Origin: Gammaproteobacteria bacterium
GTDB lineage: Bacteria > Pseudomonadota > Gammaproteobacteria > CBDDKY01
Length of the DNA: 64,000 nucleotides
Reading direction: 5' to 3'
Assembly (NCBI GenBank): GCA_965230455.1
Contig: CBDDKY010000003.1
Span: 196,039-260,038, forward strand
Made by a program: the position numbers and the translations under genes. Shown here piece by piece: positions 23,390 to 62,032 of this stretch; position 1 is the first letter of the stretch, and each line of letters begins with the position of its first letter. The notes beneath the pieces are model-generated. The model saw only the letters and a program-made list of their open reading frames with translations, did not search any database and was not told where the DNA came from.

Positions 23390-23566
23390 CCTAAAATCCT
23401 CAGTTGAAATCTACTGCGGCCGCCTAACTCACCGAATCTAAAGGATTTTTCTCGATATTTTTTATTCACCGTATGGGTGATACGCTTTCACAAAAAATAT
23501 CGAGAAAAATCCTTTATCTTCAGCAACTAAGTCGGCCTCGCGACGATTTCAACTGAGGATTTTAGG
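23390..23566. mobile_element. MITE family A (CG stem variant)
   Basis: 177 bp, GTAAC target duplication. Confidence 0.92.
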
Positions 23567-23692
23567 GTAACGCTAAGATCTGTTGACTACGCTGCAATTT
23601 GCATAAAATGGGCGTGAAAACGCCCCTCTTTTTGACCTCATGCCATAACTTATGCATAATCCTAACCTGTTTCAATAAGATGGACGGAATTT

Positions 23693-25870: not shown

Positions 25871-25878
25871 AAAAAATC

Positions 25879-31194: not shown

Positions 31195-31195
31195 G

Positions 31196-32183: not shown

Positions 32184-32349
32184 ATTTTTATCCTCATTAA
32201 ATAAATATTCTAAAATGGATAGGTTCATTATACCCAATAAATTCATTTTTGCAATATTTTTTATTTGCTTTATGCGTTTTCTGTCTTATTCATTTTTATT
32301 CAAATAGTTATCGCTTAATCCTGCCTTAAGGTTTGTTTGTTATCGTTTA

Positions 32350-33828
32350 TTGAAATTAGAAACGCTTGGAATACTTCACGTGAAAAACAACCCCTTTGTT
32401 AAAGCAAAAAGGAATCTCCAGACATTGCTTAATAGACTTGAGACACCTAAGGAAAAGCTAAGCCTTGTGACTTTTAAAAAAGATGAACTGTCTATTGATG
32501 AAAAGCCGGTCAGTATGCTCTGGGTTCCCGAAGAAAATTGCCACTTTGTTTTAACACCGTTGGGCGGTGGTGCTAATGCAACAGCCTATGTCATTAGAGG
32601 GTACGTAGGCCAAGCTAAATCAGCTTTTACACCGGCCAAAGCACCATTAGAAGTCCTTAAGATTTCCACGCCAGAACTGCGTGAATCTCTTCCACAACAG
32701 GAACAGCCTTATGCAAAAGCCCAAGTGGAAAATAAAGCATCCATCGCCGTAGGCATTGCCCCGAAGAGAGCTAAGGTCTATTCTCTAGAAGAAAAAAGTG
32801 AATATGGTACAACTATTTGCCATGTTTCTCGCCAATACCTAATCCCGGGGGAAAATCTAGCTGACTACTTAGACAGTCGTAGAAATCTCGATTTTAACGC
32901 ACGCGCTACAATCATCCAGGCAGTATTAGCTGCAGCACGCTATCAATTAAACCGTGGTTGGGCACATCTAGACTTGAAACCCGATAACATCATGTATGAT
33001 GAAAAAACAAATACCGCCTACATCATCGACATGGGTGAGGCGATATATATGGGCAAAGCCCATGAGCTTCAGGTAAGTAACTTTTTTAATTTTGCAAGCA
33101 CCTATTCAGCGCCAGAGTCAGAAAAAAACAAGACGGAAGGACATACCTATAAGCTACATAAAAATACCGACCTGTACAGCCTTGGTAAGGTTGTTCGTGC
33201 CATTATGTTTGGACGAGAATCCACAGAAAGCTTTCAAAATGACACGCTTGAGAACCATAGGTTATCAACCCGTCAGTTGTTGACCAAGAAAAGAGTAACC
33301 AAAGAGACGCACCCTCACTTGCTAGGAAACACCAATAAAAAGCACCTACTTAAAATAGCTACGCTTTGCGATATGATTTGCCAGGCACCTCCTGAAAAAC
33401 GCCCCTCTGTCAGTGCTATTCAAGCCAGTGTGGCAACTATTTCGGGTGTTCCAGCTCAAACATTTCAACCTCTCAAAAAAGGTCTGTTAAGTACCCTGAG
33501 CCAACCGTTTAAAAGCGCGGCTAGAATCCTCAGAAAAGCAGGTGGTTATTTCTTTTCACACGCTAAAACAACCGATGACATCCCTACTCATGCTAAAAGA
33601 AAAGTAAGGTTAACTCGTAGCAACTCCTTTACAGAAGGCATGAACCCCTATGCGCCTGGCAGGTTGAATAACCAGAGCACAACCGCCCAAACACAAGGTG
33701 AACACTACACACATCCTGCGCTTTTACGCGGACATTTAAGTTTTCCTCGCAAAGTAGAAGCTTTTACACAAGAAACCAACCTATCACAACAAGCAGCGCT
33801 TTCTTATGGAGTGACAAGCCCAATGTAG
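32350..33828 (+). CDS. Eukaryotic-like Ser/Thr protein kinase, candidate secreted effector
   Basis: Gly loop LGGGANATAY, LKI, catalytic HLDLKPDNIM, DMG, YSAPE, DLYSLG. Confidence 0.85.
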   Translation: MKLETLGILHVKNNPFVKAKRNLQTLLNRLETPKEKLSLVTFKKDELSIDEKPVSMLWVPEENCHFVLTPLGGGANATAYVIRGYVGQAKSAFTPAKAPLEVLKISTPELRESLPQQEQPYAKAQVENKASIAVGIAPKRAKVYSLEEKSEYGTTICHVSRQYLIPGENLADYLDSRRNLDFNARATIIQAVLAAARYQLNRGWAHLDLKPDNIMYDEKTNTAYIIDMGEAIYMGKAHELQVSNFFNFASTYSAPESEKNKTEGHTYKLHKNTDLYSLGKVVRAIMFGRESTESFQNDTLENHRLSTRQLLTKKRVTKETHPHLLGNTNKKHLLKIATLCDMICQAPPEKRPSVSAIQASVATISGVPAQTFQPLKKGLLSTLSQPFKSAARILRKAGGYFFSHAKTTDDIPTHAKRKVRLTRSNSFTEGMNPYAPGRLNNQSTTAQTQGEHYTHPALLRGHLSFPRKVEAFTQETNLSQQAALSYGVTSPM

Positions 33829-35781: not shown

Positions 35782-35792
35782 AGCTCTATCAT

Positions 35793-36069
35793 CCTAAAAT
35801 CAGCAGTAAATCGCGCTTTTTTGGTGTAACAGATTGATTTAGATAAGGAAACTAAAAAGGGAAATAAGCAATGACTGCGACAGACATCCTGTCGCAAGGC
35901 TCTTGTTCTTATCACTCCCAGCTCGGACATCCTGTCCTCGCGCTCACCAGACTGCGATGTGCCACTGGCACATCGTTCTGGTTCACCCTTATTGGTGATG
36001 GAGACTTTTTTTTTCTTAGATGAATCAAAATGTTATCGCCAAAAACGTGATTTAACTGCTGATTTTAGG
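35793..36069. mobile_element. MITE family B (277 bp)
   Basis: Near-identical to 2285..2564; ATCAT target duplication. Confidence 0.9.
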
Positions 36070-36109
36070 ATCATGTCGGTGGTAAATTTAACAAAATAAG
36101 ACGTAGGGA

Positions 36110-39262: not shown

Positions 39263-40357
39263 AGGACTTACGCATTGACAACGGCATCATTTTTTGAACG
39301 GGCGTTGATGTATTCACGAATGACTTTGACATATAATTCCTTCTTCACCTGATACCAATGTGAAATTTCCTTGTTTAACCGCATAAATTCTAGCTTCACA
39401 TAAGCCTTTATGGCGCAAATATGATTTTTTATAGGATTTTCGTTACGTACTTGAAAGCGTTCAACGTTACACACTTGTTTAATGGCACGATGAAATCTCT
39501 CTATATTCCAGTGCGCATCATGTACTCTAGTGAAATCAACCTTCGTGATACTTTCCAGGTTAGCACGCTCAAATGTGCTCATGATATAATAGCGATATGA
39601 TTTTTTGTATATCTGTCTAAATATCTTCACCATGCCATAATCCTTTAAGTAAAGTGTTGCAGAATCATCAGATGACCAGCCTTCAAATTTTTGTATTTGA
39701 ATGTACTCACCACGCGTTTCTGAAATGACACGGTTGCTTTCAATCCCAAACATGAAATTTAGGTTTTGCTTACGAATAAACTTTAAATTGTTCAAGCTTG
39801 AATACCAGCTATCGCCAGTTACCCAGGCGGGCTTTAGTCCCCAAGACAGCACCTCTAGCAGCATGTCTTTAAAATAATCATTCTTAGTTTTACCCACTTT
39901 CTTATTAACAAGTCTGAAATTAACCGGCACAGAAACACCTTTTATATCAGTGTAAAATAGCGTTATTAAATTTATTCCTTTGACAGACCGCTTATGCTTC
40001 CCAGACCAAAACCAATCTATAAATACAGCCTTGCTTGGGTCACTATAAGGCTTATCCAGCACTGAATCATCAACACTGAGTACGCCGCCTGTTAACTCAA
40101 TTTTATTTTTTTCTTCATCATATAAATCTTTTGGCTCAAATCGTTCGCGTACTAAAAATCGGTTCACGCTATCGTGCGAAACAGTTTCCATAATATCCCC
40201 TAGCCGTGTACAACTTGTGTATTGCGGGTCGCTAAGTAGATAGGAAATGTAAATATCTTCGTTACAACGTGCCGTTGATGGCTTCTTTTTGAGCAGCATA
40301 CCCACCTCCTTGCAAAAAGGAAGCATTTTAACAGAATATTGTCAATGCGTAAGTCCT
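39263..40357 (-). mobile_element. IS701-family insertion sequence, apparently intact
   Basis: Perfect terminal inverted repeats (T)AGGACTTACGCATTGACAA at 39262-81 and 40339-58. Confidence 0.88.
39268..40326 (-). CDS. IS701-family transposase
   Basis: SHDSVNRFL, VDDSVLDKPY, TGDSWYSS, WNIERFHRAIKQ. Confidence 0.9.
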   Translation of the reverse strand: MLPFCKEVGMLLKKKPSTARCNEDIYISYLLSDPQYTSCTRLGDIMETVSHDSVNRFLVRERFEPKDLYDEEKNKIELTGGVLSVDDSVLDKPYSDPSKAVFIDWFWSGKHKRSVKGINLITLFYTDIKGVSVPVNFRLVNKKVGKTKNDYFKDMLLEVLSWGLKPAWVTGDSWYSSLNNLKFIRKQNLNFMFGIESNRVISETRGEYIQIQKFEGWSSDDSATLYLKDYGMVKIFRQIYKKSYRYYIMSTFERANLESITKVDFTRVHDAHWNIERFHRAIKQVCNVERFQVRNENPIKNHICAIKAYVKLEFMRLNKEISHWYQVKKELYVKVIREYINARSKNDAVVNA

Positions 40358-40362
40358 ATAAT

Positions 40363-40413
40363 CCTAAATTCCGCCGTTGATATCGTCGCGAGGCTGACTA
40401 AGTCGCTGAAGGT
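40363..40413. mobile_element. Truncated family-A' MITE end
   Basis: ATAAT then CCTAAATTCCGCCGTTGATATCGTCGCGAGGCTGACTAAGTCGCTGAAG, after which similarity is lost. Confidence 0.7.
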
Positions 40414-40445
40414 AAGCGGATAGTTTTAAAAATTATTTGATGATA

Positions 40446-41564
40446 TAGTCCCCGCAGTTGAAACCTCGGGTTTTTGTAGTAAAATAGTCTAATAGAAAAA
40501 TTTAGGACATGGTTGTGCTAGAGTATAAATTATCAGAACGAGAATTAATCGAATTAAAATCTCGCCATCAAGGTAGTAAAAAACGTAAAGAAGCTGATCG
40601 CTTAAAAGCGGTGTATTTGCTAGGTAGTGGCTGGAAAATATCAGCAGTAAGAGAAGCCTTACTCTTAAGCGAAGATACAATACGGGGTTATTATAATAAT
40701 TACAAGCAAGAGGGGCTGGATGGTTTATTGAAAAGTAAATATTCTGGACGGCAGTCAGAAATGACAAGCTCGGAAAAAGAAGCTTTATTTTTACATCTTG
40801 AATCAGTAACCTATCAACGTGTATCTGATATTATTTTATACGTTGCCAAAGAGTTTGATATTGTCTATTCAGATAGCGGTATGCGCTTGATATTGAAAGA
40901 GCTAGGTTTTGTTTATAAAAAACCAGAGAAAATTCCCTACAAGGTGAACAAACAGTCCCAAGAAGCATTTATTAAGGCTTATAAGTCTCTCAAGAATACT
41001 GTAGATAAAGAAGATGGCCTTTATTTTATGGATGCAACGCATCCTGAGCACAATGCTGTCCCTGCGCATGGCTGGATGAAAAAAGGTGAGCGCATAGTCA
41101 TGAAGTCAAACCCACAACCAAGACGTTTAAACATTAATGGTGCGATTAATATAGACAGTTTAGATATGGTTGTTAGATTTGAGGAGCGTTTAAATAAAGA
41201 AACAACAAAAGATTTTTTAGAATCTTTACGGAAACATCAGCCAAAAGGTTATATTTATTTAATATGTGACAATGCAGGTTATTACCAATCTCCAGAGGTA
41301 CAAAGTTTAGCTGAGGCGATGGCGATTAAATTAATATTTTTACCAGCCTACTCACCAAATTTAAACTTAATAGAGCGAGTATGGAAGTTTTTTAAGAAAA
41401 AAGTACTGTACAATAAGTACTATGAAGAATTTGAAGAAATGGAAAAGGCTTGTAAAAAATTCTTTAGGCATATTTCTTATTATAAAGAAGAGCTGTCATC
41501 ATTGATGACAGAAAACTTTCAAGTTATAGAGATTTAAAACCCGAATTTCATACTGCACTGACTA
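40446..41564 (+). mobile_element. IS630-family insertion sequence, apparently intact
   Basis: TA flanks and imperfect ~30-bp terminal repeats (TAGTC..GCAGT..GAAA..TCGGGTTTT). Confidence 0.85.
40509..41537 (+). CDS. IS630-family transposase
   Basis: YFMDATHP, ICDNAGYY, LPAYSPNLNLIERVW. Confidence 0.95.
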   Translation: MVVLEYKLSERELIELKSRHQGSKKRKEADRLKAVYLLGSGWKISAVREALLLSEDTIRGYYNNYKQEGLDGLLKSKYSGRQSEMTSSEKEALFLHLESVTYQRVSDIILYVAKEFDIVYSDSGMRLILKELGFVYKKPEKIPYKVNKQSQEAFIKAYKSLKNTVDKEDGLYFMDATHPEHNAVPAHGWMKKGERIVMKSNPQPRRLNINGAINIDSLDMVVRFEERLNKETTKDFLESLRKHQPKGYIYLICDNAGYYQSPEVQSLAEAMAIKLIFLPAYSPNLNLIERVWKFFKKKVLYNKYYEEFEEMEKACKKFFRHISYYKEELSSLMTENFQVIEI

Positions 41565-41671
41565 TATACTGCCCGCGCTTTGGTTTGCGGGCAATGAGTC
41601 CAGCTCATTGAGCGCTTATTTTAACCTAAAATCGGCAGTATATCAGGCAGCATGGCGCGCCAAGCTTTACG

Positions 41672-41941
41672 TTATGGTGCCAAAACGTTGGCGCGATATG
41701 TTCGTTCTTCATCAATAGTTTGGTGCGGACATTTTTGATTGTCTACTGCTGTTCGAGGTTCGATAATATGATTGAGCTCAACAATTGATGATTCTATTAA
41801 CGCTTGATGTTGGTGAATAATATTTCTTAACGATGCGCCTCGCAACGGTTGACTGAGAATAGTCACTGGTTTCTTTTTTAACTGTGGTGGCTGTTCTTCT
41901 TGCGCGAAGTTTCCTGAAGCCACGGAATTTGGTTTGGACAT
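41672..41941 (-). CDS. Small hypothetical protein
   Basis: GGAGGT SD-like motif 7 nt upstream of the ATG (MSKPNS); no family recognised. Confidence 0.4.
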   Translation of the reverse strand: MSKPNSVASGNFAQEEQPPQLKKKPVTILSQPLRGASLRNIIHQHQALIESSIVELNHIIEPRTAVDNQKCPHQTIDEERTYRANVLAP

Positions 41942-42099
41942 AAAATAACACCTCCCATGATTATTTTGTTCATTCTGAAAACGATGGAGTGGCATTTTAG
42001 TACGACGGTTATTGTTTATTTATTCCGTAGCTTATTGATTTTTAAGGGCACAAAGTTGAAAGGCCTCGGAGCTGGGTGCGGGGTGTGTTTACTTAATGG

Positions 42100-42173
42100 G
42101 AACGATACGAATTGAGAAATTCACGTACCGTTCTGCGAGAGGCTGGTGGGAAAATTCTACCGGTTTACTCTCC
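42100..42173 (+). ncRNA. Group II intron domains V and VI (3' remnant)
   Basis: 34-nt D5 GAACGATAC-GAATT-GAGA-AATTC-AC-GTACCGTTC with GNRA loop and AC bulge; D6 GAGAG...A-CTCTC with bulged A. Confidence 0.8.
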
Positions 42174-42444
42174 CAAGTGTTGACAAATCACAAAGCCGTT
42201 AAGGTGTACTACAGGGTATAATTTAAACGAAAAATAAATTTTATAAAAGATGTTTCTTTTAGTGCTTATTTTCGATAACATAACCGCTTGGTTGGTTGGA
42301 ATGCTCTTATTTTTATGTGGCCCATTGCTATTCTTTAAGGCGCCTGCTTCGAGCGTTACTCTCATCATTTTTAATAAGTTTATTTAAGCTGATGTATGGT
42401 AGCTATTCTACCCGACGATTTTTTTAGGGGAAAATCATTCAAAG

Positions 42445-42717
42445 GTGGTTGGCGGGTGGCAGCTCAAAACCCTAAAATTCAAACGCTACAGGTATTTATT
42501 GGGGAGTGCACTAGTCTTGCCATGCAGGCAAAAAAAGCTAGGGGGTGAGTATACCGATGTATTTATACCATACGGATATAGGTTATTAACAGATAAAAAA
42601 ATATTAACCAATGTTGATAAAGAGCAAAAAATAATTATAATAGCGAACCAATTGCGTAGCGAAGGGTATAAGCTAGAAGCAATAGCAAAAAATACTGACA
42701 AGAAACTTTATCCATAG
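42445..42717 (+). pseudogene. Serine recombinase/resolvase C-terminal remnant
   Basis: GGEY..IPYGYR..EQKII..LRSEGYKL.AIA; catalytic N-terminus absent. Confidence 0.55.
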
Positions 42718-42809
42718 CAAGTTGCTAGACGTAGATTAATACGACTCTTTTGCTATAAGGCAACATGAGCAAGTGAATTTAAATCAATAGCATAAAATAT
42801 GTCATATCA

Positions 42810-43463
42810 ATGAAATTATACGGGAAGAAATTTGAAGATAGAGAAACGCTAAATAAAGCAAGAGAAATGCTGTATCGTTATTATGTTCAAGAGCTACACT
42901 GGAAAATAAATATAGAAAATCAATCTGGAATAAAAACAATAAAAACAAGTAGAAACCAAATGATGCTCGTTGATGATTATGATAATAATTCTGATTGGTT
43001 TGGTGTCTTTTATCAAAAAGATATTATTGCTTGTGCAAGAATAATTGACCATAGCCAATATCCCGTTGAGCTATCAAGATATTCTTCAGCGGCAAAGATA
43101 ATGAAAGATATTATTTTACACGAGAAAATAGCCGAGCTTAACAGGGAAGCGATAGACTCAAGGTTTGCTAACATTAAAAAAGTTTACTGCTGTTTATTTA
43201 AAACTATTTTAGATTACTGTTTGCTAAAAAATAAAGCGGTAATTACCACTAGCAACCTTACATCATGGCAAGCGTTTTATAAAGAGATTCGCCTGTCAAA
43301 GCTACAGGATTATAGTTTTAAGTATGAGCCAACTGATCACAAAGAAGTAGATGTTTATTTTGCAGAAAATGATGAAATATCTACATTAATAAAAACCATA
43401 GAAATGAAAGAGCATCCTGCTGTTAACACTAAAACAATACCGTTACATCTTGTGACTGAGTAA
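42810..43463 (+). CDS. GNAT-fold acyltransferase, LuxI/FeeM-like
   Basis: YRYYVQEL.W, DDYD, IACARI, ELNREAID. Confidence 0.7.
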   Translation: MKLYGKKFEDRETLNKAREMLYRYYVQELHWKINIENQSGIKTIKTSRNQMMLVDDYDNNSDWFGVFYQKDIIACARIIDHSQYPVELSRYSSAAKIMKDIILHEKIAELNREAIDSRFANIKKVYCCLFKTILDYCLLKNKAVITTSNLTSWQAFYKEIRLSKLQDYSFKYEPTDHKEVDVYFAENDEISTLIKTIEMKEHPAVNTKTIPLHLVTE

Positions 43464-43486
43464 ATTATTTATTACATAGGTACCCC

Positions 43487-44563
43487 ATGATAAACTTTGA
43501 ATCTTTTGTGTCACTACATAATATTTATCCAGAAAAAACAAGACCTTTTTTGGCAAAATCTTGTAAAGAAGCAAGCAGAAAAAATTTTAAGGGCTTAAAA
43601 ATACTACAGAATATTCCCTTAACTATAGAGGCCGTTTTAAAGATAGAGCCTTTACTTATTGCAGGAGCAGACTTAACTGTTAGCTGTATAACATCACTGC
43701 AACCCCATAAAAAAGCTATAGATATACTTAAAGCAGCCAATGTTAAAGTAAATATAGAACACAATTTCACAGAGCAATATGATATTCACTTAGATTGCTG
43801 CGGGGAACTTGCCGACAATATTGCACCAAGGATAGGGAGTATTGAGCTAACCCAAACCGGTACAAATAGATACAAAGAGCTAAACCCAAAATATCCCGTC
43901 ATCTCTGTAGATGATTGTGATTTAAAATATTTAGAAGCATTATATGGAACAGGAGATGGGTATATTAGAGCAATAAAAAAAAATACTGATATAGATTTGC
44001 ATAACAAAAAATTTATTGTTTTCGGTTGCGGGAAGATAGGTAAGGGTGTTATTAATGCGGTGTTACGATATTCAGATAATATTTTTGTTATTGACCCAGA
44101 TGAGAGCGCTCTAAATTTTGCTACAGCACGAGGCATTAAGTCCTCTTACGGCAAGAATATCAGTCAAATTAAATCAGAAATAAAGGATGCTCACTTTGTT
44201 GTAACGGCAACAGGAATTAAGGACTTGCTCACAGATTATTATCAGCTGGAGAAACTCGATTTTGGAAATGCCATATTAGCAAACATGGGCGCAGAGGATG
44301 AGTATGGAAGTAATTTTAGCTCAGACGATGTGCTTTTTGATAAAATGCCGCTAAACTTCTCTCTTGAACAACCAACACAAATGAAATACCTCGATCCAAT
44401 TTTATATGCACATAACAAAGCCATAGATATATTGCTATCAAATAATACAACAAAAACCTACCAAAGTTTCCCACAAAAAGAAGTAAATAACATTTTAATG
44501 AATTGGGCAAAATTTCACGATGAAAATATAGATCTGCTACTTAGTTCTACTAATAAAAAATAA
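43487..44563 (+). CDS. Short, divergent adenosylhomocysteinase-like NAD-binding enzyme
   Basis: ELTQTG, PVISVDD..K..YGTGDG, FGCGKIGKG, VTATG, LANMG. Confidence 0.8.
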   Translation: MINFESFVSLHNIYPEKTRPFLAKSCKEASRKNFKGLKILQNIPLTIEAVLKIEPLLIAGADLTVSCITSLQPHKKAIDILKAANVKVNIEHNFTEQYDIHLDCCGELADNIAPRIGSIELTQTGTNRYKELNPKYPVISVDDCDLKYLEALYGTGDGYIRAIKKNTDIDLHNKKFIVFGCGKIGKGVINAVLRYSDNIFVIDPDESALNFATARGIKSSYGKNISQIKSEIKDAHFVVTATGIKDLLTDYYQLEKLDFGNAILANMGAEDEYGSNFSSDDVLFDKMPLNFSLEQPTQMKYLDPILYAHNKAIDILLSNNTTKTYQSFPQKEVNNILMNWAKFHDENIDLLLSSTNKK

Positions 44564-44591
44564 AAAGTAACTATTCAGCTATTTTTGCTGA

Positions 44592-44829
44592 GGAATATAG
44601 AGAGATTTCATCGTGCCATCAAAGAAGTGCGTAACATTGAACGCTTTCAAGTACATAACGAAAATTATATTTTTCGCGCCATAAAGGCTTATGTGAAGCT
44701 AGAATTTATGCGATTAAATAAGGAAATTTCATATTGGCATCAAGTAAAAAAGGAATTATATGTCAACGTCATTTTTGAATACACCACCGATCTATCAAAA
44801 ATGATGCTGTTGTCAATGCATAAGTCCTA
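44592..44829 (+). pseudogene. 3' remnant of the same IS701 element
   Basis: NIERFHRAIK..AIKAYVKLEF; ends in TTGTCAATGCATAAGTCCTA. Confidence 0.85.
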
Positions 44830-45050: not shown

Positions 45051-45397
45051 GGGTCTGTTGACATTTCATTTTTGCAAGCGGAATTTAGGTTGAACCTAAA
45101 ATCCTCAGTTGAAATCGTCGCGAGGCTGACTTAGTTGCTGAAGATAAAGGATTTTTCTCAATATTTTTTGTGAAAGCGTATCACCCATACGGTGAATAAA
45201 AAATATTGAGAAAAATCCTTTAGATTCGGTGAGTTAGGCGGCCGCAGTAGATTTCAACTGAGGATTTTAGGTTGAAGGAACGAAAGGCAAATTTGCGTTT
45301 ATTGGAGGCAGTATAGTGAACTATATAACGAAAATATACGCAAACTTGCACCCGTTTTATTCAAATTGTAGCGTGAAAATGAATTGTCAACAGACCC
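45051..45397. mobile_element. MITE family C carrying a nested family-A MITE
   Basis: GGGTCTGTTGACA...TGTCAACAGACCC ends, TA target duplication. Confidence 0.88.
45095..45271. mobile_element. MITE family A nested in MITE C
   Basis: 177 bp, TTGAA target duplication. Confidence 0.92.
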
Positions 45398-45943: not shown

Positions 45944-47158
45944 ATGAAAAAAATCATGGTTCTTACAACCTATCTTGCCAACCTTTGGCTTGCAATTAAA
46001 GGTGAGAAAATTAACACTGAAGATAGTGATGTTTATTTGGATAGCATAATAAATAGGATGCCGGCGTATATTTTTTGGAAAAATAAAAGCTCCATCTATC
46101 TCGGATGTAATCATAGATTTTCTCATCTCGTTGGATTAACTTCATCAGAAGAAATTATAGGAAAAACAGACTTTGACCTAAACTGGAAAAACGAAGAAGT
46201 AGAACTATTTAGAGAGGGCGATAGAAGTGTAATGAGCGGCAACCCACTGATTAATGTGGAAGAAATAATCAAACAACCCAATAAAAAAGATATTGTGATG
46301 CTAGTAAGCAAAGTTCCATTGCGAAATAAAACCGGGGAGTGCATCGGTATGCTTGGTATGTCCATGGACATAACAGAGCTAAAAGAGACCCAACAAAACT
46401 TAAAAGTAGCCAAAGAAAAAGCAGAAAGGCTATTGCAGGATAAAAATGAGTTCTTACGCAATATTGAGCATGATATTAGAACTCCATATAGCGGTCTTTA
46501 TTCCATTATTAGCCACCTAGAAAGTATCGAGGAAAATCAAGAGAAAAAAGAAATGCTAGAGATAGTCAAGGATTCCGCTAAAGAGCTTCTGGACTATAAT
46601 AATGCGATGATAGAGTTTGCCCGAGCTGATGAGGGAATGTTGACAGTTTTACAAAAGAAATTCGACCTCGAGAGCTTGGCGTCAGGCGTTATTAATATAG
46701 AAAAACCCGCCGCTATAGCCAAAGGGCTTAAGCTCGAGTTAAATTACTCAGAAGATATACCTAAATATTTAATTGGAGACCCCAATAAAATTCAAACATT
46801 ATTAATAGACCTATTAGGAAATAGCATAAAATTCACAAAAGAAGGTTATTGCAAACTCACTGTTGATTGCGCTAAAAAAGATGAAAAATTAGCCATAATA
46901 CAGTTTATTATTGAAGATACTGGCATCGGAATACCCGAAGACAAACAAGAATATATTTATGAAAAATTTGCAAAACTATCCCCGTCCAACCAGAATGTGT
47001 ATAAAGGCGCAGGATTAGGATTAAGCATGGTGAAATTAATCATGCAAGAGCTAAATGGTGAGATTGAGCTTAAAAGTGAGTTAGGTAAAGGTACCACTTT
47101 CTCGTGCACCATCCCTTTGCGAGTTGCACTTACTGATAAACCGCCACTTAACGCATAG
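45944..47158 (+). CDS. PAS-domain sensor histidine kinase
   Basis: IFWKNK..YLGCN PAS; NIEHDIRTP H-box; LGNSIKFT, DTGIGI, GAGLGL. Confidence 0.92.
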   Translation: MKKIMVLTTYLANLWLAIKGEKINTEDSDVYLDSIINRMPAYIFWKNKSSIYLGCNHRFSHLVGLTSSEEIIGKTDFDLNWKNEEVELFREGDRSVMSGNPLINVEEIIKQPNKKDIVMLVSKVPLRNKTGECIGMLGMSMDITELKETQQNLKVAKEKAERLLQDKNEFLRNIEHDIRTPYSGLYSIISHLESIEENQEKKEMLEIVKDSAKELLDYNNAMIEFARADEGMLTVLQKKFDLESLASGVINIEKPAAIAKGLKLELNYSEDIPKYLIGDPNKIQTLLIDLLGNSIKFTKEGYCKLTVDCAKKDEKLAIIQFIIEDTGIGIPEDKQEYIYEKFAKLSPSNQNVYKGAGLGLSMVKLIMQELNGEIELKSELGKGTTFSCTIPLRVALTDKPPLNA

Positions 47159-47160
47159 GA

Positions 47161-47532
47161 GTGAACATGTTGATTTTGGTTGTTGAAGATACACCAATTG
47201 CTCAAAAAAGCATAAAAATAATATTAAGCAGCCTAGGGCATGAGGTTTCTATCGCCGACACAGGAGAAGATGCCGTTGAGATGGCCGATAAGACCAAATA
47301 CGATATTATATTTATGGATATTGGCTTAGGAGAAGGCATTAACGGTTTTGAGGCAACAGCGCAAATCAAAAAGGCTAATAATCTTAATGAATCAACACCA
47401 GTAGTTGCCTTAACAGCCCATGACGAACCTGAATTTGTCGAAAAAGTCAAAGAAGTTGGCATGGTAGAATACTTCAATAAGCCCATGACCCCAGACAAAA
47501 CACAAACTGCCTTCAAACATGTTAAGCCATAA
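47161..47532 (+). CDS. Single-domain response regulator
   Basis: LVVED, IFMDIGL, VALTAH, NKP. Confidence 0.93.
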   Translation: MNMLILVVEDTPIAQKSIKIILSSLGHEVSIADTGEDAVEMADKTKYDIIFMDIGLGEGINGFEATAQIKKANNLNESTPVVALTAHDEPEFVEKVKEVGMVEYFNKPMTPDKTQTAFKHVKP

Positions 47533-47749
47533 AAATGCATTGTTAGGCTTAACAAAGCCAAGAAACTTTATAGCCCAATCAACGTCATGTGACATGGGAA
47601 ATAGTGTCACTCATTCTTATCATCATCAAGATCAGTGTTTTTAGTTTCTGTGTTTTTATTGGTAACAACTGAGACACCAGAAAATAAAGTATCGATATGA
47701 GTTGTAAAAGCCATTAGCTTGTCTAATGGCGCTGAATGCAGCCCATAAT

Positions 47750-48174
47750 CCTAAATTCCGTAGTTGAAATCTACTGCGGCCGTCTAACTCACCGAATCTA
47801 AAGGATTTAGTCAGCCTCGCGACGATTTCAATTGAGGATTTTAGGCTTATTGGTGATGGAGACTTTTTTTGTTTTCTTAGATGAATCCAGATGTTATCGC
47901 CAAAAACGTGATTTAACTGCTGATTTTAGGTTTAACCTAAATTCCGCAGTTGAAATCGTCGCGAGGCTGACTAAGTCGCTGAAGATAAAGGATTTTTTTC
48001 CGTCTTTTTTGTGAAGGCGTATCACCCATACGGTGAATAAAAAAGACGGAAAAAAATCCTTTAGATTCGGTGAGTTAGACGGCCGCAGTAGATTTCAACT
48101 ACGGAATTTAGGTTTAACCTTGTATCTTAACTGCGAGGAAAAGAAGAGCTTGATAATCGACTGCGAAATTTAGG
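47750..48174. mobile_element. Composite MITE stack: deleted A', B fragment, full A' at 47936-48112, and a further end
   Basis: Whole unit flanked by ATAAT (47745-49 and 48175-79); inner A' flanked by TTTAA. Confidence 0.8.
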
Positions 48175-48217
48175 ATAATTCACCTACGCTGAGTCTATTC
48201 AATAAAAGAGAGAAGCC

Positions 48218-49006
48218 ATGTCACCTGATACCGGAAAACAGCTCTACCACTATCAAGATGAAGATATCGAACTAGAGGTACGAGAAGATGATAAACAACG
48301 CTGGTTGCATTTGGGTAGTGACTTCATCCAAAGCGCCATGAACCTTATGGCCCCCCAGGCACTCACACTCTATTACTTGCAATTTATGTTAGCAAGCTTA
48401 TTATTTAATCCAGCCCCAAAACGTGTTTGGGTTTTAGGCCTAGGCGGTGGCTCGCTCATTCGCTTTTTTCAGCACTACCTACCAGAGACACAAGTCGACG
48501 TGGTAGAACTTAACCCCCATGTCATTGATGTAGCAAAACGTTATTTCTTATTAGAAGAAACGGCCAATGTACATATTCATTGCATGGATGCGGTGGAATT
48601 TGTTCGAGAAAAAAAAACCGTGGTAGATATGATTTTTGTAGATATTGCCACTAAAACCGGCCTACCCAAGCCACTTTATCTCAATGCTTTTTATCGCAAT
48701 TGCCTAAAAGCCCTCAAAAAAAAAGGCGTGTTTGCTTTTAACATGTTGTCTCATTCAGACAGAGAACTACAAAAGCTCATCAAACGTCTGCGTGATATTT
48801 TTACCTATCGCCACTTATGCTTAGATGTACCTGGCTATGAAAATATCATCAGCTTTTGCTTTAAAGATATTCCTGAGCTACTCTCCCTGGAGGGTCTCAA
48901 AGAACGCGCTTTCCTGCTGGAGGAAAACTACCCTATTCAATTTAGCCAATTCTTGCTGCCTTTATTTAAAATAAACCCAAGTTATCGCGGGCTATTGAGT
49001 TTTTGA
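48218..49006 (+). CDS. Spermidine synthase-like SAM-dependent methyltransferase
   Basis: IQSAM, VLGLGGGSLIRF, VVELNPHVIDVAKRYF, DMIFVD. Confidence 0.85.
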   Translation: MSPDTGKQLYHYQDEDIELEVREDDKQRWLHLGSDFIQSAMNLMAPQALTLYYLQFMLASLLFNPAPKRVWVLGLGGGSLIRFFQHYLPETQVDVVELNPHVIDVAKRYFLLEETANVHIHCMDAVEFVREKKTVVDMIFVDIATKTGLPKPLYLNAFYRNCLKALKKKGVFAFNMLSHSDRELQKLIKRLRDIFTYRHLCLDVPGYENIISFCFKDIPELLSLEGLKERAFLLEENYPIQFSQFLLPLFKINPSYRGLLSF

Positions 49007-49104
49007 ACAAGCTTTCAGTTCCTTAATTAAAATTTGATAAAATATTTTTCATCAGTTATCATACCGACCACTCGTTTGAGTCTTTTGGCTGCAATACAGG
49101 GAAT

Positions 49105-49845
49105 ATGAATAATATGAACATGGATGAAGAAATTATAGTAGAAACACAAGCCACACACCCCTTTGATTCACTCACCCCCAAAATACGACAACAATTACAA
49201 CACGAGTTTCAATGGATTATCCAGCCGGTGCTTGAGCGATGTCGCGCACTGATGTCAGGACCTTTTTTTCATTGGCTGCACGCATTAGACTGCGTTGAAC
49301 TTTTTGCACCTACGGCAAAGGAACTCTACTTCCCTACCTACCACCTGCCTCGCGCCACGGGATTATTGCTTTCGAGTACCCCCATAAACCAAAGCTATAT
49401 GCTCTCTTACTTAGCTCGCCACACCTTCACAGAAGCCTGTCAGCATGAACTACTGTTACAGTGGATGCTAAATCACAAGCTTATGCAGAAACCACAAGAC
49501 ATCTTAGCCATACGGCCAAAGCCTGCCACAAAAGCACTGGTGAATTTTTACTACCGTAGCGCCCTGGAACGTGAGCTTATACCCTGGGTCATCAGTATCC
49601 ACTATGCTATTGATCTTTGTCATAAAAAGCTTTTTCAAGTTCTCTTGCCCAAAATGAGCAGCCTGGGTGCTGATGACCCCTATTTCCATATCAATGCTGA
49701 TGAAAGTGACATTGGTGGCATCACCAGCTTCCAGTGGGTAGAGCCTCTGCTAAGCATAAGACCGCATACTAAACATCTGTTAATACAGCACAGCCTAGAC
49801 GCCATTGATCTGTGGGATAAGATGCTAGGGGATTCCATTTTATAG
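49105..49845 (+). CDS. Heme-oxygenase-like (TenA/PqqC/HDO) helical-fold protein with degenerate metal ligands
   Basis: RH..TEACQHELL and PYFHINADESD align with HDO E..H and YF..H...D..H patterns but are altered. Confidence 0.55.
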   Translation: MNNMNMDEEIIVETQATHPFDSLTPKIRQQLQHEFQWIIQPVLERCRALMSGPFFHWLHALDCVELFAPTAKELYFPTYHLPRATGLLLSSTPINQSYMLSYLARHTFTEACQHELLLQWMLNHKLMQKPQDILAIRPKPATKALVNFYYRSALERELIPWVISIHYAIDLCHKKLFQVLLPKMSSLGADDPYFHINADESDIGGITSFQWVEPLLSIRPHTKHLLIQHSLDAIDLWDKMLGDSIL

Positions 49846-49935
49846 CAATAATCCACCCTAGAGCACACCGTTTATATTTCAACTATACTATAGGAACCTG
49901 TTTAAAAAATTTACGGAAAAAAGGACTACAATCCT

Positions 49936-50196
49936 ATGAATAAAAATAAAATTTTAGCCTCAGCGCTTAGTGGTGTACTGGCACTGGGGCTAAGCACTGT
50001 TGCCCAGCAGGCTATCGCTGCAAAATCTGGTTTTGAGAAGTGTTATGGTGTCACCAAAGCGCGTATGAATGACTGCGGCACCAGCAAACATGCCTGCGCC
50101 GGACAAGCTAAAAGTGATAACGACCCGGAAGAATGGGTTTATCTGCCCAAGGGCACTTGTAAAAAAATTGCCGGTGGAAAAACCACGCGAAGCTAG
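49936..50196 (+). CDS. DUF2282 / BufA1 bufferin-type precursor peptide
   Basis: Signal peptide plus EKCYGV..NDC..HACAG..WVYLPKGTCKKI.GG (4 Cys). Confidence 0.92.
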   Translation: MNKNKILASALSGVLALGLSTVAQQAIAAKSGFEKCYGVTKARMNDCGTSKHACAGQAKSDNDPEEWVYLPKGTCKKIAGGKTTRS

Positions 50197-50234
50197 CGCG
50201 TTTATTGTCGCTTTTTGCGTGAGAATTTCTAGTC

Positions 50235-50996
50235 ATGCCTTTGCAAGCACTACAACAGCAAATGCTCAATGCGATACTCGCTGCCGATGAGAATATCGCA
50301 TCTCTACCTGTCTGTCAGCAAAATCCATTATCGCCTCAAGAGCGCATTGGTATTTATCGCCATAATATTCGCGCGCAATTAATACAGACACTCAAACAGG
50401 TTTATCCCGTCTGCTTTCAATTAGTCGGAGAAGATTGCTTTAACGCCATGGCCGCCCATTTTGCCATGAAGATATCGCCCCCGCAGTCTTTTTCACTGAA
50501 TCACTATGGCCATAACTTTCCAGCTTTCATTGAACAATTTGAGCCGCTTGCCTCCGTGCCTTATTTAGCCGATGTGGCACGTTTGGAATGGGCCTACGAA
50601 AAAGCCCAGTATAGTCCTTATGCAGCTACTTTCCCTCATGAGAAACTTGCTGCTGTACCCACTGAACACTACCAGCAATTACGATTTTGTTTGCCACAGG
50701 GTTCTACTTTGTTGGCTTCACCTTTTCCGGTTTTTACCATTTGGCATCATCATCAACAAAAGGAGGACATCCCTGCTATCGATATCCAACAGGGCGGCGA
50801 AACGCTATTGATCTCACGAGAACAATGGGATGTTCGTCCGACGTTATTAAGCCAAACACAATGGCAGTGTTTAATGGCCATCAAACAAGGACAAACCTTA
50901 AGCGAACTCAGTGTATCGCAAGACACAACACTGCATAGCTTACTCACTCACCTCATTACGAAACAATGGGTCAATGACATCATCTTGGAGGACTAA
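50235..50996 (+). CDS. DUF2063 / BufC (HvfC-like) RiPP partner protein
   Basis: RIGIYRHN..L...YP..LVGEDCF, YG..FP.F, YLADVARLEWA. Confidence 0.9.
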   Translation: MPLQALQQQMLNAILAADENIASLPVCQQNPLSPQERIGIYRHNIRAQLIQTLKQVYPVCFQLVGEDCFNAMAAHFAMKISPPQSFSLNHYGHNFPAFIEQFEPLASVPYLADVARLEWAYEKAQYSPYAATFPHEKLAAVPTEHYQQLRFCLPQGSTLLASPFPVFTIWHHHQQKEDIPAIDIQQGGETLLISREQWDVRPTLLSQTQWQCLMAIKQGQTLSELSVSQDTTLHSLLTHLITKQWVNDIILED

Positions 50997-50999
50997 GTA

Positions 51000-51488
51000 A
51001 TGATTCTATGTAAAATAGCTTGCGCCATCGCAAAGCCCTTTAAGGTTGCGCTGGATTTTTTAGCGCCCTTAGCGGATTTGATATTGCGCATTTTTGTTGC
51101 AGAGATTTTTTTCATGTCAGGATTAGTAAAACTACAATCTTGGGAAACCACTGTCATGCTATTTGAGCATGAGTATCACGTGCCTTTTTTAGCAGCCGAT
51201 ATGGCGGCCTACGCCGGAACAGCTGTTGAAATCGTGATGCCGATTCTACTGGTATTGGGCTTATTTGGACGATTACCAGCATTTATTTTATTTATATTTA
51301 ATGCTGTGGCGGTTATTGCCTATCCCTTCTTACACACACCCGAAGGCGCAGTAGGGCTTTATAACCATCTGACCTGGGGAATGCTGCTCTTAGCGCTAAC
51401 CTTCCATGGACCTGGCAAATTAGCGCTGGATAATTGGATTAGGAGCAAGTGTTGCTGCCCGGTTAAAAAAGCAAAAGAGGAAGCTTAG
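51000..51488 (+). CDS. DoxX family membrane protein (BufD-like)
   Basis: LRIFVAEIFFMSGLVK, LFEHEYHVP, GPGKLALD. Confidence 0.9.
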   Translation: MILCKIACAIAKPFKVALDFLAPLADLILRIFVAEIFFMSGLVKLQSWETTVMLFEHEYHVPFLAADMAAYAGTAVEIVMPILLVLGLFGRLPAFILFIFNAVAVIAYPFLHTPEGAVGLYNHLTWGMLLLALTFHGPGKLALDNWIRSKCCCPVKKAKEEA

Positions 51489-52453
51489 GAGACTGCCGTA
51501 AACAACATCACAAAATACGCTGTAAAAGCTAACAACAACAAAACGCCACTAAAACGGCCTATACAGCGTGTTTTGCCTTTCTTGGCAAACGACATAACAA
51601 ACAACATCACCGCTAAAATCACCATAGCAGGGTAATCACGTTCCATCAGCAGAGGACTTAGGGTGGCTGGATGAATAGCACCTGGTAAGCCTAACACCGC
51701 CAACAAGTTAAACATGTTAGAACCCAATACATTGCCCAAGGCTAAATCAGACTCATTCCGCAATGCGCCCATCAAGGATGCCGCCAGCTCTGGCAAGCTA
51801 GTTCCCACAGCCACCACGGTCAGACCAATAATCAAATTATTGACCCCCAAGGCTTTGGCGATAAACACGGCACCTTGCACCAAGACTTCACCGCTACCGA
51901 TTAATAGCACCAAGCCCAATACCACCCAAAAAACAGCCCTTGCCGTAGGCATCCCTGTTGGAATTTCTTCTGCAAATTCTTTGGAGAGCGGTTCATCTTC
52001 TTTAGAGGAAAGCCCTAATTTTACAAACCAGCCAAACAATAAAAAGAAACCCACCAATAAGATGATGCCATCCATGCGACTAAAGTAACCATTCCCTAAC
52101 AACACGCCAACCAGAGCCATTATAATAAATAACATGGGAAATTCACGCCGCAAAATACCCGAGTTTACTTGCAGCGGTTTAATCAACACCGTCAACCCAA
52201 TAACCAGTCCCACATTGATAATATTAGAGCCAATGGCATTACCCACCCCCAGTGCTGTGCTGCCATGTAAGCCCGCCACCCCCGATACAAACATTTCTGG
52301 TGCCGAGGTACCAAAGCCTACAATAATTAAACCCACCAGCAAAGGCGAGACCCCTAAATTACGTGCTAGCGCCGATGCACCAGCCACAAAACGGTCAGCC
52401 CCCCAAATTAAAAAAATGAACCCGATAATAACAAAGAGGATGGCTTGTAGCAT
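51485..52453 (-). CDS. yrbG: Ca2+/Na+ antiporter (YrbG family)
   Basis: GFGTSAPE, GNAIGSNIIN, VGTSLPELA, GNVLGSNMFN. Confidence 0.92.
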   Translation of the reverse strand: MLQAILFVIIGFIFLIWGADRFVAGASALARNLGVSPLLVGLIIVGFGTSAPEMFVSGVAGLHGSTALGVGNAIGSNIINVGLVIGLTVLIKPLQVNSGILRREFPMLFIIMALVGVLLGNGYFSRMDGIILLVGFFLLFGWFVKLGLSSKEDEPLSKEFAEEIPTGMPTARAVFWVVLGLVLLIGSGEVLVQGAVFIAKALGVNNLIIGLTVVAVGTSLPELAASLMGALRNESDLALGNVLGSNMFNLLAVLGLPGAIHPATLSPLLMERDYPAMVILAVMLFVMSFAKKGKTRCIGRFSGVLLLLAFTAYFVMLFTAVS

Positions 52454-52600
52454 GCTGATGAGTTCCTTAAGCTATATACTATACTGCGAACTGAAGGGTT
52501 TTAAGTGTACTTTTAGTTGTTACTTAGAAGGCTAATGGCCCGAATCTGCAGGTACATATTAAAAAAGCCATCCCCCGGAAGCTTACAAATGCTCACACTA

Positions 52601-53354
52601 TCGTCATCGCGAGCGGCAGCGACGCGACCCTGGTTTAACCTAAAATCCTCAGTTGAAATCTACTGCGGCCGCCTAACTCACCGAATCTAAAGGATTTTTC
52701 TCGATATTTTTTATTCACCGTATGGGTGATACGCTTTCACAAAAAATATCGAGAAAAATCCTTTATCTTCAGCAACTAAGTCGGCCTCGCGACGATTTCA
52801 ACTGAGGATTTTAGGTTTAACCACAAAGCGGCGCACATTGAACACATAACACCCTGCTTTGTTCAAGAGAAGGTGTTAGACACTTAATGCGCACGGCTTC
52901 GTAGTTAAAACTTTCCTACCGTTCAACGTAGATTGCTTCGCTGCCGCTCGCAACGACGAGTAAGAGAGCATGTAAGCCATTGAAAGGAAATGACTCTTCT
53001 ATGGTGTACCCGTTAGTTTATTACTCAATACGGTTTGCTTTCACAAGGAATGATGAACGCACAAGCACATCCGAAAAAATTCACTCTCTCTCAGTAGCTT
53101 ACAACCCCTCTTATTCGTCGTTGCGAGCGGCAGCGAAGCAATCCAAATTAAATCCTAGGAAAGTTTAAACCACGAAGCTATAGACTCTGCACACATAACA
53201 CCTTGCCTTGTTCAAGAAAGGACATACCTGTTTCTAGTTCACTGAAAAAATAGAACAAGTCAGCCTACCGCCCTGGATTGCTTCGCTGCCGCTCGCAACG
53301 ACGAGTAAGAGAGCATGTAAGCCATTGAAAGGAAATGACTCTTCTATGGTGTAC
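52601..53354. repeat. REP/BIME-like array of alternating inverted palindromes
   Basis: TCGTCGTTGCGAGCGGCAGCGAAGCAATC forward at 52601 (degenerate) and 53115, reverse at 52931 and 53276; 79-bp direct repeat 52931-53009 = 53276-53354. Confidence 0.85.
52639..52815. mobile_element. MITE family A (CG variant) inserted in the REP array
   Basis: 177 bp, TTTAA target duplication. Confidence 0.92.
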
Positions 53355-53415
53355 TCGTGAACTCATTACTCAGAAGACTCGACTTCACAGTAAGACATGA
53401 CATTAATCCCGGCTA

Positions 53416-60655: not shown

Positions 60656-60760
60656 CCATGATATAGCGCGCCCAAGACTTATTCAAGCTCAAGGTTTTCA
60701 GGCGACTGCAGCTGAAAAAAACAGGTCTGATTGTTTTTTGGCCATTCCTTATTGTATAAT

Positions 60761-60937
60761 CCTAAATTCCGTAGTTGAAATCTACTGCGGCCGTCTAACT
60801 CACCGAATCTAAAGGATTTTTTTCCGTCTTTTTTATTCACCGTATGGGTGATACGCCTTCACAAAAAAGACGGAAAAAAATCCTTTATCTTCAGCGACTT
60901 AGTCAGCCTCGCGACGATTTCAACTGCGGAATTTAGG
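60761..60937. mobile_element. MITE family A' (variant stem and ends)
   Basis: 177 bp, CCTAAATTCCG..CGGAATTTAGG ends, ATAAT target duplication. Confidence 0.92.
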
Positions 60938-60970
60938 ATAATGAAGCTTTTCATCTTCTGGAGTCTTCCC

Positions 60971-62032
60971 ATGCCTTTTGCTGAAAAAGAACAAAAAAAA
61001 TCGCCAAGTGCTCTTATTATCAATTTATCCTTATTAGTCAATACAGATACAAACCGCTCAATACAGCGCTTTAACGCGCTTGCAGACTTACTACCCGAAG
61101 GCACAGAACCCAGTTGCACTCAGTCATTGAGAAACACTCTCTGGATAATTTACCAATACGCGACAAATGCTCGCCAAGAAGCTCTGCGTATGATTCCTGG
61201 CGCAAAAATGCTGCTAGGTCCCTGTGCAGGCCAAGGCATCATTGATAAATACAAATGTGGAAAAATCTCCACTGACGATTTTTTAGAGCAAATAGGGGAA
61301 ACTTTTTCCCATCTCGACAAAGTTTCTAAGGGCAAGCTAACAACCTTATGGACAAAATGGAAAAAAAAAGACGGCACTGCTGAAGCTGAGCGCCATGAGC
61401 CTCCCACTGAAAAAAGCGCACTCATTAAAGATTTATTCACCCTGGCCTGGAATGCCGTCAGTGAGGTGGACGACAACAGTATTAAGTGCTTGCAAGCCCT
61501 TATTGAACAACATCCTAATAAACCTATTATCTTCATTTCAAACAGCAATCAGTTAAATATTGAGAAAATTGTTAGCCAACTCCGTCAGAAAATTAAAACC
61601 TCTGATAACCTATCGGAAAAAATTATCATTAACCCAGACATGGACACCAGCTATGTGACAGAGGGTGTTCGCCAATATAACAACAAAGCTACCGAAGTTA
61701 ATGGGCTAGAACAGCTTCCTGGCATTGCTGACTTCGCTGTACATAACGTTGAACATATCTTTTTCTATGCTTCCTATAAAGCAGGCATGTTTAAGGCGGA
61801 TAAAACCTCGCCCCTTAACACCTTTTTTTCCTATGGTACGCCGGGGTTGGTGGGTGCACTTGCAACTGTCGCTAAAGAAGATGAGCGCCTAAAAAATGCA
61901 ACAATACTGTCGCAATTTGGTGGCGATATCACTTGCGCTAAAAAATACTTCCCTGATGCCCACTGCGAAAAGGTTACGGACTTGAGCGAATACTTAAACC
62001 TGCAAGCGATGCCGGCCTTAGTCTATCAATAA
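60971..62032 (+). CDS. Hypothetical protein with a degenerate HAD-like fold, effector-like; ORF track start 60848 lies inside the MITE
   Basis: IIFISNSN (HAD motif II-like), FYASYKAG.FK; motif I Asp replaced (INLSLLV). Confidence 0.55.
   Translation: MPFAEKEQKKSPSALIINLSLLVNTDTNRSIQRFNALADLLPEGTEPSCTQSLRNTLWIIYQYATNARQEALRMIPGAKMLLGPCAGQGIIDKYKCGKISTDDFLEQIGETFSHLDKVSKGKLTTLWTKWKKKDGTAEAERHEPPTEKSALIKDLFTLAWNAVSEVDDNSIKCLQALIEQHPNKPIIFISNSNQLNIEKIVSQLRQKIKTSDNLSEKIIINPDMDTSYVTEGVRQYNNKATEVNGLEQLPGIADFAVHNVEHIFFYASYKAGMFKADKTSPLNTFFSYGTPGLVGALATVAKEDERLKNATILSQFGGDITCAKKYFPDAHCEKVTDLSEYLNLQAMPALVYQ

Follow-up and report, generated by a model that had tools for sequence, protein, structure and literature searches.

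Bufferins form a very large family, defined recently, of copper-binding peptides that are made by ribosomes and modified after translation (RiPPs), and their chemistry is thought to depend wholly on an MNIO and its PME1 partner. The MNIO BufB (DUF692) and the partner BufC (DUF2063/PME1) are both required and jointly sufficient for the conversion of two central cysteines of the precursor BufA1 to 5-thiooxazoles (PMC11626156). Copper protection in Caulobacter was lost upon deletion of bufA, bufB or bufC and was kept upon deletion of doxX (PMC11626156). DUF2063/PME1 proteins have been described as dedicated MNIO partners, and in nearly all cases the PME1 gene adjoins and overlaps the MNIO gene (PMC13097082). 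Here, we describe a cluster of bufA, bufC and the DoxX gene bufD that has no bufB, found in a 64,000 nt stretch (the 64-kb window in the following) of contig CBDDKY010000003.1 of a gammaproteobacterium. The usual order bufA-bufB-bufC-bufD and the thiooxazole chemistry, with which an original prediction from the sequence had contrasted this locus, agree with the published work (PMC11626156, PMC12452194).

The closest described systems are the Buf1 biosynthetic gene cluster (bufA1B1C1D1) of Caulobacter vibrioides and the GIG operons of Cupriavidus and Legionella. The window shares with them the PF10048 precursor with its Sec signal and four-cysteine spacing, the DUF2063/PME1 and DoxX genes, the gene order, the single strand and the coupling of bufC to bufD. 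It differs from them by the lack of bufB, by the lack of an adjacent extracytoplasmic function (ECF) sigma/anti-sigma pair and by a DoxX protein with a CCC tail. Captophorin and related MNIO-PME1 clusters (oxazolin HvfABC, fontiphorin, gonophorin; PMC13097082, PMC11252979) have in common with the window a PME1 protein composed of DUF2063 and a RiPP recognition element (RRE) and a cysteine-rich, Sec-exported substrate. Their PME1 genes near-universally adjoin an MNIO gene, whereas that of the window does not, and the window proteins stay below the HvfC and HvfX cutoffs. The MNIO-partner complex TglHI from the 3-thiaglutamate pathway of Pseudomonas syringae is the top structural match of the window BufC model, but the identity is 14-17%, the substrate belongs to another class and no MNIO gene is present beside the window bufC.

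Stand-alone precursors that are not linked to an MNIO are common, and modification in trans or no modification has been suggested for them (PMC12452194, Antoine et al. 2025). Any MNIO is missing from 21 of the 4072 complete genomes with DUF2282 (0.5%; PMC12452194). The window precursor is likewise unlinked to an MNIO, but the stand-alone precursors are described as precursor-only, whereas the window keeps the partner and DoxX under purifying selection. Given this retention, it may be asked which function the partner performs. We found no published account in which precursor, partner and DoxX genes form a cluster that lacks the enzyme; the available surveys were anchored on MNIO or precursor genes.

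Architecture of the bufA-bufC-bufD Locus

The genes bufA, bufC and bufD are all located on the plus strand, and each open reading frame (ORF) is uninterrupted. The bufA1 gene (49936-50196) encodes a bufferin precursor of 86 aa and matches PF10048 (DUF2282/BufA1) with 83.7 bits, compared to a gathering cutoff of 22.4. It is followed by a spacer of 38 bp (50197-50234), which is the site of bufB (MNIO, about 840 bp) in canonical clusters. The bufC gene (50235-50996) encodes a full-length DUF2063/PME1 partner of 253 aa (PF09836, DUF2063/HvfC_N, 79.1 bits, gathering cutoff 27.2), and bufD (51000-51488) encodes a DoxX-family membrane protein of 162 aa (PF07681, 56.7 bits, gathering cutoff 23.6). Only 3 bp separate bufC from bufD, and a GGAGGA sequence is located 7 nt ahead of the bufD ATG. 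The predicted layout, a DUF2282 precursor followed after 38 bp by DUF2063 and DoxX with all genes intact, is therefore in agreement with the ORF coordinates and the Pfam scores. The cutoffs of the NCBIfam equivalogs HvfC (NF050145, 36.3 versus 142) and HvfX (NF050144, 57.2 versus 80) were not reached, and the BufA2 model of NCBIfam scored 25.9, which is under its cutoff of 60. We concluded that the proteins are Buf1-type and are relatives rather than members of the Haemophilus oxazolin equivalogs.

Residues 1-28 of BufA (nt 49936-50019) read as a Sec signal peptide with predicted cleavage between AIA and AK. The core of 58 aa contains Cys36, Cys47, Cys54 and Cys75, and all four are invariant in an alignment with 10 BufA1 proteins, in which 13 invariant columns are common to the canonical BufA1s. 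The central motif around the two modified cysteines, NDCGTSKHACAGQA, is identical in several canonical BufA1 relatives. The computed monoisotopic mass of the core is 6207.98 Da in the reduced form, 6203.95 Da with two disulfides and 6197.90 Da with two thiooxazoles and one disulfide.

BufC has two domains, DUF2063 at the N-terminus and an RRE-like domain at the C-terminus. It retains every invariant and near-invariant residue of the family, including PYLADVARLEW, and scores 266.8 bits against the BufC family profile, which is at about the 10th percentile. The AlphaFold2 (AF2) model has the two-domain PME1 architecture with a predicted local distance difference test (pLDDT) score of 91.4. The top matches of the model in the PDB were the TglHI holoenzyme (8HCI/8HI7, chain A, which we take to be the partner subunit TglI) and NGO1945 (3DEE), and a search of the BufC profile against the PDB sequences gave no match.

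BufD is 45-54% identical to the DoxX proteins encoded 3' of BufC in canonical clusters. Its C-terminus (51440-51488 of the window) ends in RSKCCCPVKKAKEEA with a KCCCP tail, and a CCC tail was present in 0 of 99 other BufD sequences. The DoxX protein of L048, the other enzyme-less cluster of the bufA-bufC-bufD type (see below), has a tail with two cysteines. Cysteines in the DoxX tail were thus seen in 2/2 enzyme-less clusters versus 2/98 others, a post hoc comparison of small numbers.

A small G+C-rich hairpin was found by a consensus scan over the bufA stop codon (50185-50201, plus strand). From its sequence and position, this hairpin is a possible attenuator downstream of the precursor gene. 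The spacers between bufA and bufC in the enzyme-less loci L171 and L048 also hold hairpin-like palindromes. Rfam and tRNA scans of the 64-kb window gave no matches.

The Window Contains No MNIO Gene or Detectable Remnant

In canonical relatives, an MNIO of 279-281 aa is encoded between bufA and bufC, and the 3' end of its gene overlaps the start of bufC. We built a custom profile from 37 MNIO genes located directly 5' of BufC in other loci, which was validated by scores of 394-426 bits for six Pfam-labelled MNIOs. A six-frame search of the 64-kb window with this profile did not find an MNIO/DUF692 (PF05114) gene or remnant (best E=0.26), and tblastn of the window with six MNIOs from the closest related clusters also revealed no MNIO (best E 0.11). 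Both searches uphold the earlier statement that no DUF692 remnant lies anywhere in the window. The locus is a genuine Buf1-type cluster without its MNIO gene.

We also inspected assembled contigs of the sequencing runs X1, X2 and X3, which belong to one 2025 study and contain the window sequence. When contigs of the source runs were matched to the canonical cluster L002 at 80% likeness, the window bufA was recovered with 83 nt at 81%, which served as a positive control. With the same bait, MNIO-like contigs were found only at a depth of 2-12, compared to 26 and 43 for the window genome in X1 and X2, and by a blastn proxy this bait would detect <15% of orthologous MNIOs, a sensitivity too low for the depths to speak for or against an MNIO in trans. 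Low-GC baits were no better than the L002 bait for the detection of an MNIO acting in trans (blastn proxy).

The X1 and X2 contigs that match L002:200-2300 include low-depth, GC-rich contigs with bufA-, MNIO- and bufC-like sequence, which indicates that other community members carry canonical bufferin clusters. One bufC-like contig had a depth of 29, close to that of the window genome, but its flanks were GC-rich.

The Junction between bufA and bufC Is Authentic and the Genes Are Under Purifying Selection

Over 48900-51700, the window is covered by Logan contigs of X1 and X2 (depths of 26 and 43, respectively) that are identical to it, and a contig of X3 spans 49805-50381. A related sequence was present in X4, an unrelated coral metagenome from 2023. 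The X4 contig for 50008-50574, comprising the 3' end of bufA, the spacer and the 5' end of bufC, showed 35 substitutions and no gap, and the spacer showed 3 substitutions and no indel compared to the window. This relative is ~94% identical in DNA and has the same gap-free junction of bufA and bufC. Neither the runs of the source study nor X4 exhibited joints, indels or loose ends at the junction. A collapse of the assembly, which had been named as a possible refutation, was excluded by the contiguous junction in X1, X2, X3 and X4. That bufB was collapsed out of the assembly or masked by a frameshift is a negligible prospect, since the identical contiguous junction is seen in X1, X2 and X3 as well as in the independent coral metagenome X4, and the six-frame hidden Markov model (HMM) search and tblastn yielded no MNIO fragment. 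X3 looked fragmentary and had been considered as an RNA run, but its depth was uniform across genes, and it is therefore DNA.

Since X4 has the same junction, the enzyme-less arrangement is older than the split of the two lineages, which are ~6% apart in DNA. The ratio of nonsynonymous to synonymous substitution rates (dN/dS) was calculated by the Nei-Gojobori method after putting the X4 substitutions into the window sequence, over the covered parts. It was 0.19 for bufA, 0.18 and 0.14 for two covered parts of bufC and 0.03 for bufD, with dS in these genes of about 0.13-0.23. For bufC, 13 of 31 changes were nonsynonymous, while 79% would be expected under neutrality (p=7e-6). When bufA, bufC and bufD were combined, this applied to 17 of 49 changes, with 78% expected (p=8e-11). 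No frameshift or stop codon was detected in the X4-covered parts of the three genes. The dN/dS values of 0.03-0.19 indicate that bufA, bufC and bufD are under purifying selection and are maintained rather than decaying.

Other BufC Loci and the Origin of the Deletion

Two scans of genomes and metagenomes with a BufC alignment yielded 160 loci, of which 129 were informative, as their sequence extended upstream of BufC by 900 bp or more. An MNIO gene was present in 128 of these 129 loci and normally overlapped the start of BufC. The sole exception, L048 from a Hyphomicrobiaceae metagenome-assembled genome (CBDFNK01), has bufA, an 84-bp spacer, bufC and doxX. A look-up of the closest BufC homologs of the window revealed two more enzyme-less pairs. 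L001 has bufA, a 281-bp spacer and bufC, followed by an HPP-family gene, and L171 has bufA, a 48-bp spacer and bufC. The remaining close homologs were canonical. No MNIO remnant was found in L001, L048 or L171. A survey for clusters lacking bufB, as it had been proposed along with the original prediction, thus brought up three enzyme-less bufA-bufC pairs against the background of a near-universal MNIO.

The closest relatives of the window BufA (L002, L163, L164, L165/166, L167/168) share 60-71% identity with it, the value varying with the alignment method, and are all found in canonical clusters of bufA, bufB and bufC with or without bufD. With the BufA proteins of L171 and L001, the window BufA shares just 48-51% identity. 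The canonical setting of all closest relatives implies that the ancestor had bufB and that bufB was deleted from a canonical operon. A clean excision is the simplest reading of these sequence comparisons, and it lends support to the clean loss that had been offered as one option. In a neighbor-joining (NJ) tree, L171, L001 and eight canonical loci share a marine gammaproteobacterial subgroup with the window BufC, but the branching is unsupported (bootstrap of 19% for the window with L171 and 0% for the window with L171 and L001). More than one independent loss across bacteria is more likely than a single enzyme-less clade.

The BufC proteins of enzyme-less loci rank 3, 7 and 26 of 121 for excess divergence, with the window at rank 7. 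Each of them deviates at 12 of 56 conserved columns, compared to a median of 5, while the canonical L002 and L003 deviate at 13 and 15. We considered a relaxation of BufC after the loss of bufB and rejected it, because these canonical proteins depart from the consensus as much. The divergence is a lineage effect and not evidence of decay.

Some other loci showed unusual gene forms. L162, a 650-bp metagenome contig, encodes a protein of 149 aa (62-511, P0131) with two tandem BufA1 domains behind one signal peptide; tandem Buf1/Buf1 fusions have been mentioned before (PMC12452194). In L073 (6220-7881) and L042 (8579-10702), the BufC match lies inside a long ORF that spans the MNIO region, which could be an MNIO-PME1 fusion or a read-through of ORF calling.

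The Haem-Oxygenase-Like Neighbor orfU

The gene orfU (49105-49845) is located on the same strand as bufA, 90 bp upstream of it. The AF2 fold and the PF14518 hits of its homologs assign it to the haem-oxygenase-like, iron redox enzyme superfamily. The orfU protein itself scores 21.5 bits for PF14518, which is below the cutoff of 28.9, while 13 of 13 aligned homologs match this family. The AF2 model (pLDDT 87.6) has a haem-oxygenase-like fold, and Foldseek matched it to 3DDE, CADD and UndA with template modeling (TM) scores of 0.65-0.72. The family is tiny, with 24 representatives among 1.84 billion proteins, and two members carry N-terminal tandem rhodanese (sulfur-transfer) domains. With a dN/dS of 0.09 relative to X4, orfU is under strong purifying selection. 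In the last metal-binding helix, H..D..H of the family aligns to N..S..I/G in orfU, and a shift by 2 residues gives H-x3-D-x2-D.

The closest orfU homolog lies next to a TetR regulator, and its neighborhood contains no bufferin genes. We rejected orfU as a general, conserved partner of enzyme-less loci, since the other enzyme-less bufA-bufC loci are without such a neighbor and the closest homolog is not linked to bufferins. It is doubtful that orfU belongs to the buf cluster.

Mobile Elements and Other Features of the Window

The segment of 48.1-52.7 kb that carries the cluster is flanked by copies of a ~190-nt repeat resembling a miniature inverted-repeat transposable element (MITE); no copy is present at the deletion junction. 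The left bound is formed by composite copies at 47745-48119 (repeat families D2, D3, D5, D6 and D7; inverted pairs I4, I7 and I22) and the right bound by a copy at 52630-52832 (D1, I7), which is inverted relative to 47919-48119. The 4532-bp Logan contig of X1/X2 (48132-52663) terminates at these bounding repeats. Further copies of this repeat, which occurs in both orientations with 88-99% identity, are located at 14305-14506, 19155-19345, 23381-23580, 45078-45276 and 60752-60943. Judged by k-mers, the repeat reaches a depth of about 100x single copy in X1 and of about 40x in X3, which suggests roughly 40-100 copies, or many tens in a 1.5-Mb genome. ORF callers read spurious peptides through the repeat (KKDGKKSFIFSDL...), and the ORF at 60848-62032 begins within a copy.

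A second dispersed repeat of ~200-230 nt with 81-99% identity is found at 2280-2570, 19849-20046, 35788-36074 and 47846-47930 (D4, D6, I1, I15, I18). Direct and inverted repeats of ~100-130 nt (D8, I17, I19) are located at 52896-53372 between a Na/Ca antiporter gene and folB. The stretch 39268-44801 has a low GC content (0.34-0.37), and the GC skew is reversed over about 40-48 kb. It contains two DDE transposase genes (39268-40326, minus strand; 40509-41537, plus strand), and inverted repeats of 140 nt (39291-39430 and 44662-44801) flank it. The stretch resembles a mobile segment that was inserted or inverted and that would carry two unannotated genes as well as, downstream of the 140-nt repeats, a PAS histidine kinase/response regulator pair (45944-47532).

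Type VI secretion genes are found at 25142-33828. TssM/IcmF (25879-29130) has a Pfam match, while DotU/TssL-, TssK-, TssJ- and Hcp-like ORFs close to it were named by eye from their translations only. After these secretion genes, a eukaryotic-type Ser/Thr protein kinase (32350-33828) and an OmpA-family protein are encoded, both with Pfam matches. The window also encodes DsbB. Of ten window proteins that were looked up in a protein collection, nine were present, each as a singleton cluster on one contig of 1,522,619 bp.

Discussion

The enzyme-less bufferin operon is real. Its junction is conserved from one strain to another, its genes are under selection, and the arrangement recurs in other lineages. 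As an explanation, we tentatively favor that bufB was lost by clean deletion while bufA1, bufC and bufD were kept, and that an MNIO encoded elsewhere may modify BufA1 in trans. BufA1 would be made with its Sec signal peptide, and BufC, bearing the RRE for substrate recognition, would still bind it in the cytoplasm and pass it on to an MNIO whose gene lies at another place on the chromosome, such as in a second MNIO/bufferin-type cluster. This MNIO would turn Cys47 and Cys54 into 5-thiooxazoles, and after export the Cys36-Cys75 disulfide would form and the peptide would buffer periplasmic copper. The use of one catalytic subunit for two recognition subunits could represent streamlining in a small, repeat-ridden genome. 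Since BufC is under purifying selection and its only demonstrated role is that of an obligatory MNIO partner, the most economical assumption is that an MNIO is still available. We favor modification in trans because the motif of the modified cysteines is unchanged and because DUF2282 genomes without MNIO are rare (21/4072). Several points weigh against it. The profile search and tblastn found no MNIO in the 64-kb window, MNIO and PME1 genes are nearly always adjacent (128/129 loci; PMC13097082), and no PME1 is known to pair with a non-cognate MNIO. The divergence of the window BufC somewhat exceeds that predicted from BufA and BufD (rank 7/121), although canonical relatives such as L002 and L003 depart from the consensus to the same degree. 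Moreover, the genome is small and full of MITE and insertion sequence (IS) copies, so that paralogous clusters may be few.

It appears rather unlikely, although it is the main rival explanation, that the genome has no MNIO, that BufA1 is exported unmodified with its four cysteines binding metal as thiolates or forming a redox-active disulfide pair, and that BufC acts independently of an MNIO. BufC could then be, for example, a dedicated cytoplasmic chaperone that keeps the precursor export-competent, and DoxX may handle thiol redox. The purifying selection on BufC and BufD with no MNIO nearby, the intact enzyme-less pairs in at least three other lineages (L001, L048, L171), the small genome (longest contig 1.52 Mb) and the record of 21 complete DUF2282 genomes without MNIO (PMC12452194) fit this explanation. 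The cysteines in the DoxX tails of the window (KCCCP) and L048 (2/2 versus 2/98, post hoc) and the presence of DsbB in the window also fit. However, deletion of bufB abolishes copper protection in Caulobacter, and the unmodified peptide is hence not protective there (PMC11626156), an MNIO-independent function of DUF2063 proteins is not known (PMC13097082), the motif at the modification site is as in canonical relatives, and just 0.5% of DUF2282 genomes are without MNIO (PMC12452194). We consider it improbable that the cluster is a recently disabled relic, in which the loss of bufB killed the pathway and bufA, bufC and bufD have not yet decayed. The signs of genome reduction and mobile elements (two transposase genes and a MITE whose depth points to about 40-100 copies), the weak ribosome-binding site of bufC after the loss of translational coupling to bufB and the slightly higher divergence of BufC than expected would suit a relic, but the same junction in the X4 strain at a dS of about 0.13-0.23, the dN/dS values of 0.03-0.19 and the lack of frameshifts and stop codons are unexpected for useless genes in a reducing genome. 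Different chemistry had been suggested as a further option, and orfU is one candidate for it: as a putative di-iron enzyme it might have taken over the oxidation of BufA1 from the MNIO, either together with BufC or on its own. Its position on the same strand 90 bp upstream of bufA, its dN/dS of 0.09, a fold akin to the di-iron oxidases CADD and UndA and the membership in a rare family with two fusions to tandem rhodanese domains speak for this role. Yet the family is not bufferin-associated elsewhere, as the closest homolog lies beside a TetR regulator and not beside bufferin genes, and the other enzyme-less bufA-bufC loci have no orfU-like neighbor. The metal ligands of the last helix are not clearly conserved (Asn/Ser/Ile-Gly for His/Asp/His), and a haem-oxygenase-like di-iron oxidase (HDO) working with a PME1 is without precedent, and we regard such a replacement as very improbable.

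An operon in which selection preserves precursor, partner and DoxX although the enzyme is absent represents a natural experiment. If modification in trans is true, one MNIO would serve a non-adjacent, non-cognate partner and precursor, which would bear on the rules of substrate specificity and on genome mining, as the latter is usually MNIO-centered and would overlook loci of this kind. If the organism has no MNIO, the partner and the unmodified peptide would have a function of their own, and the finding would gain considerably in interest. In this less likely case, the PME1 would have a selected, enzyme-independent function, for example as chaperone of an unmodified four-cysteine bufferin that forms together with DoxX a thiol-based periplasmic metal or redox buffer, or another oxidant such as orfU would be in use. 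The intact enzyme-less bufA-bufC pairs in at least four lineages would then constitute a distinct, overlooked class of bufferin-like systems.

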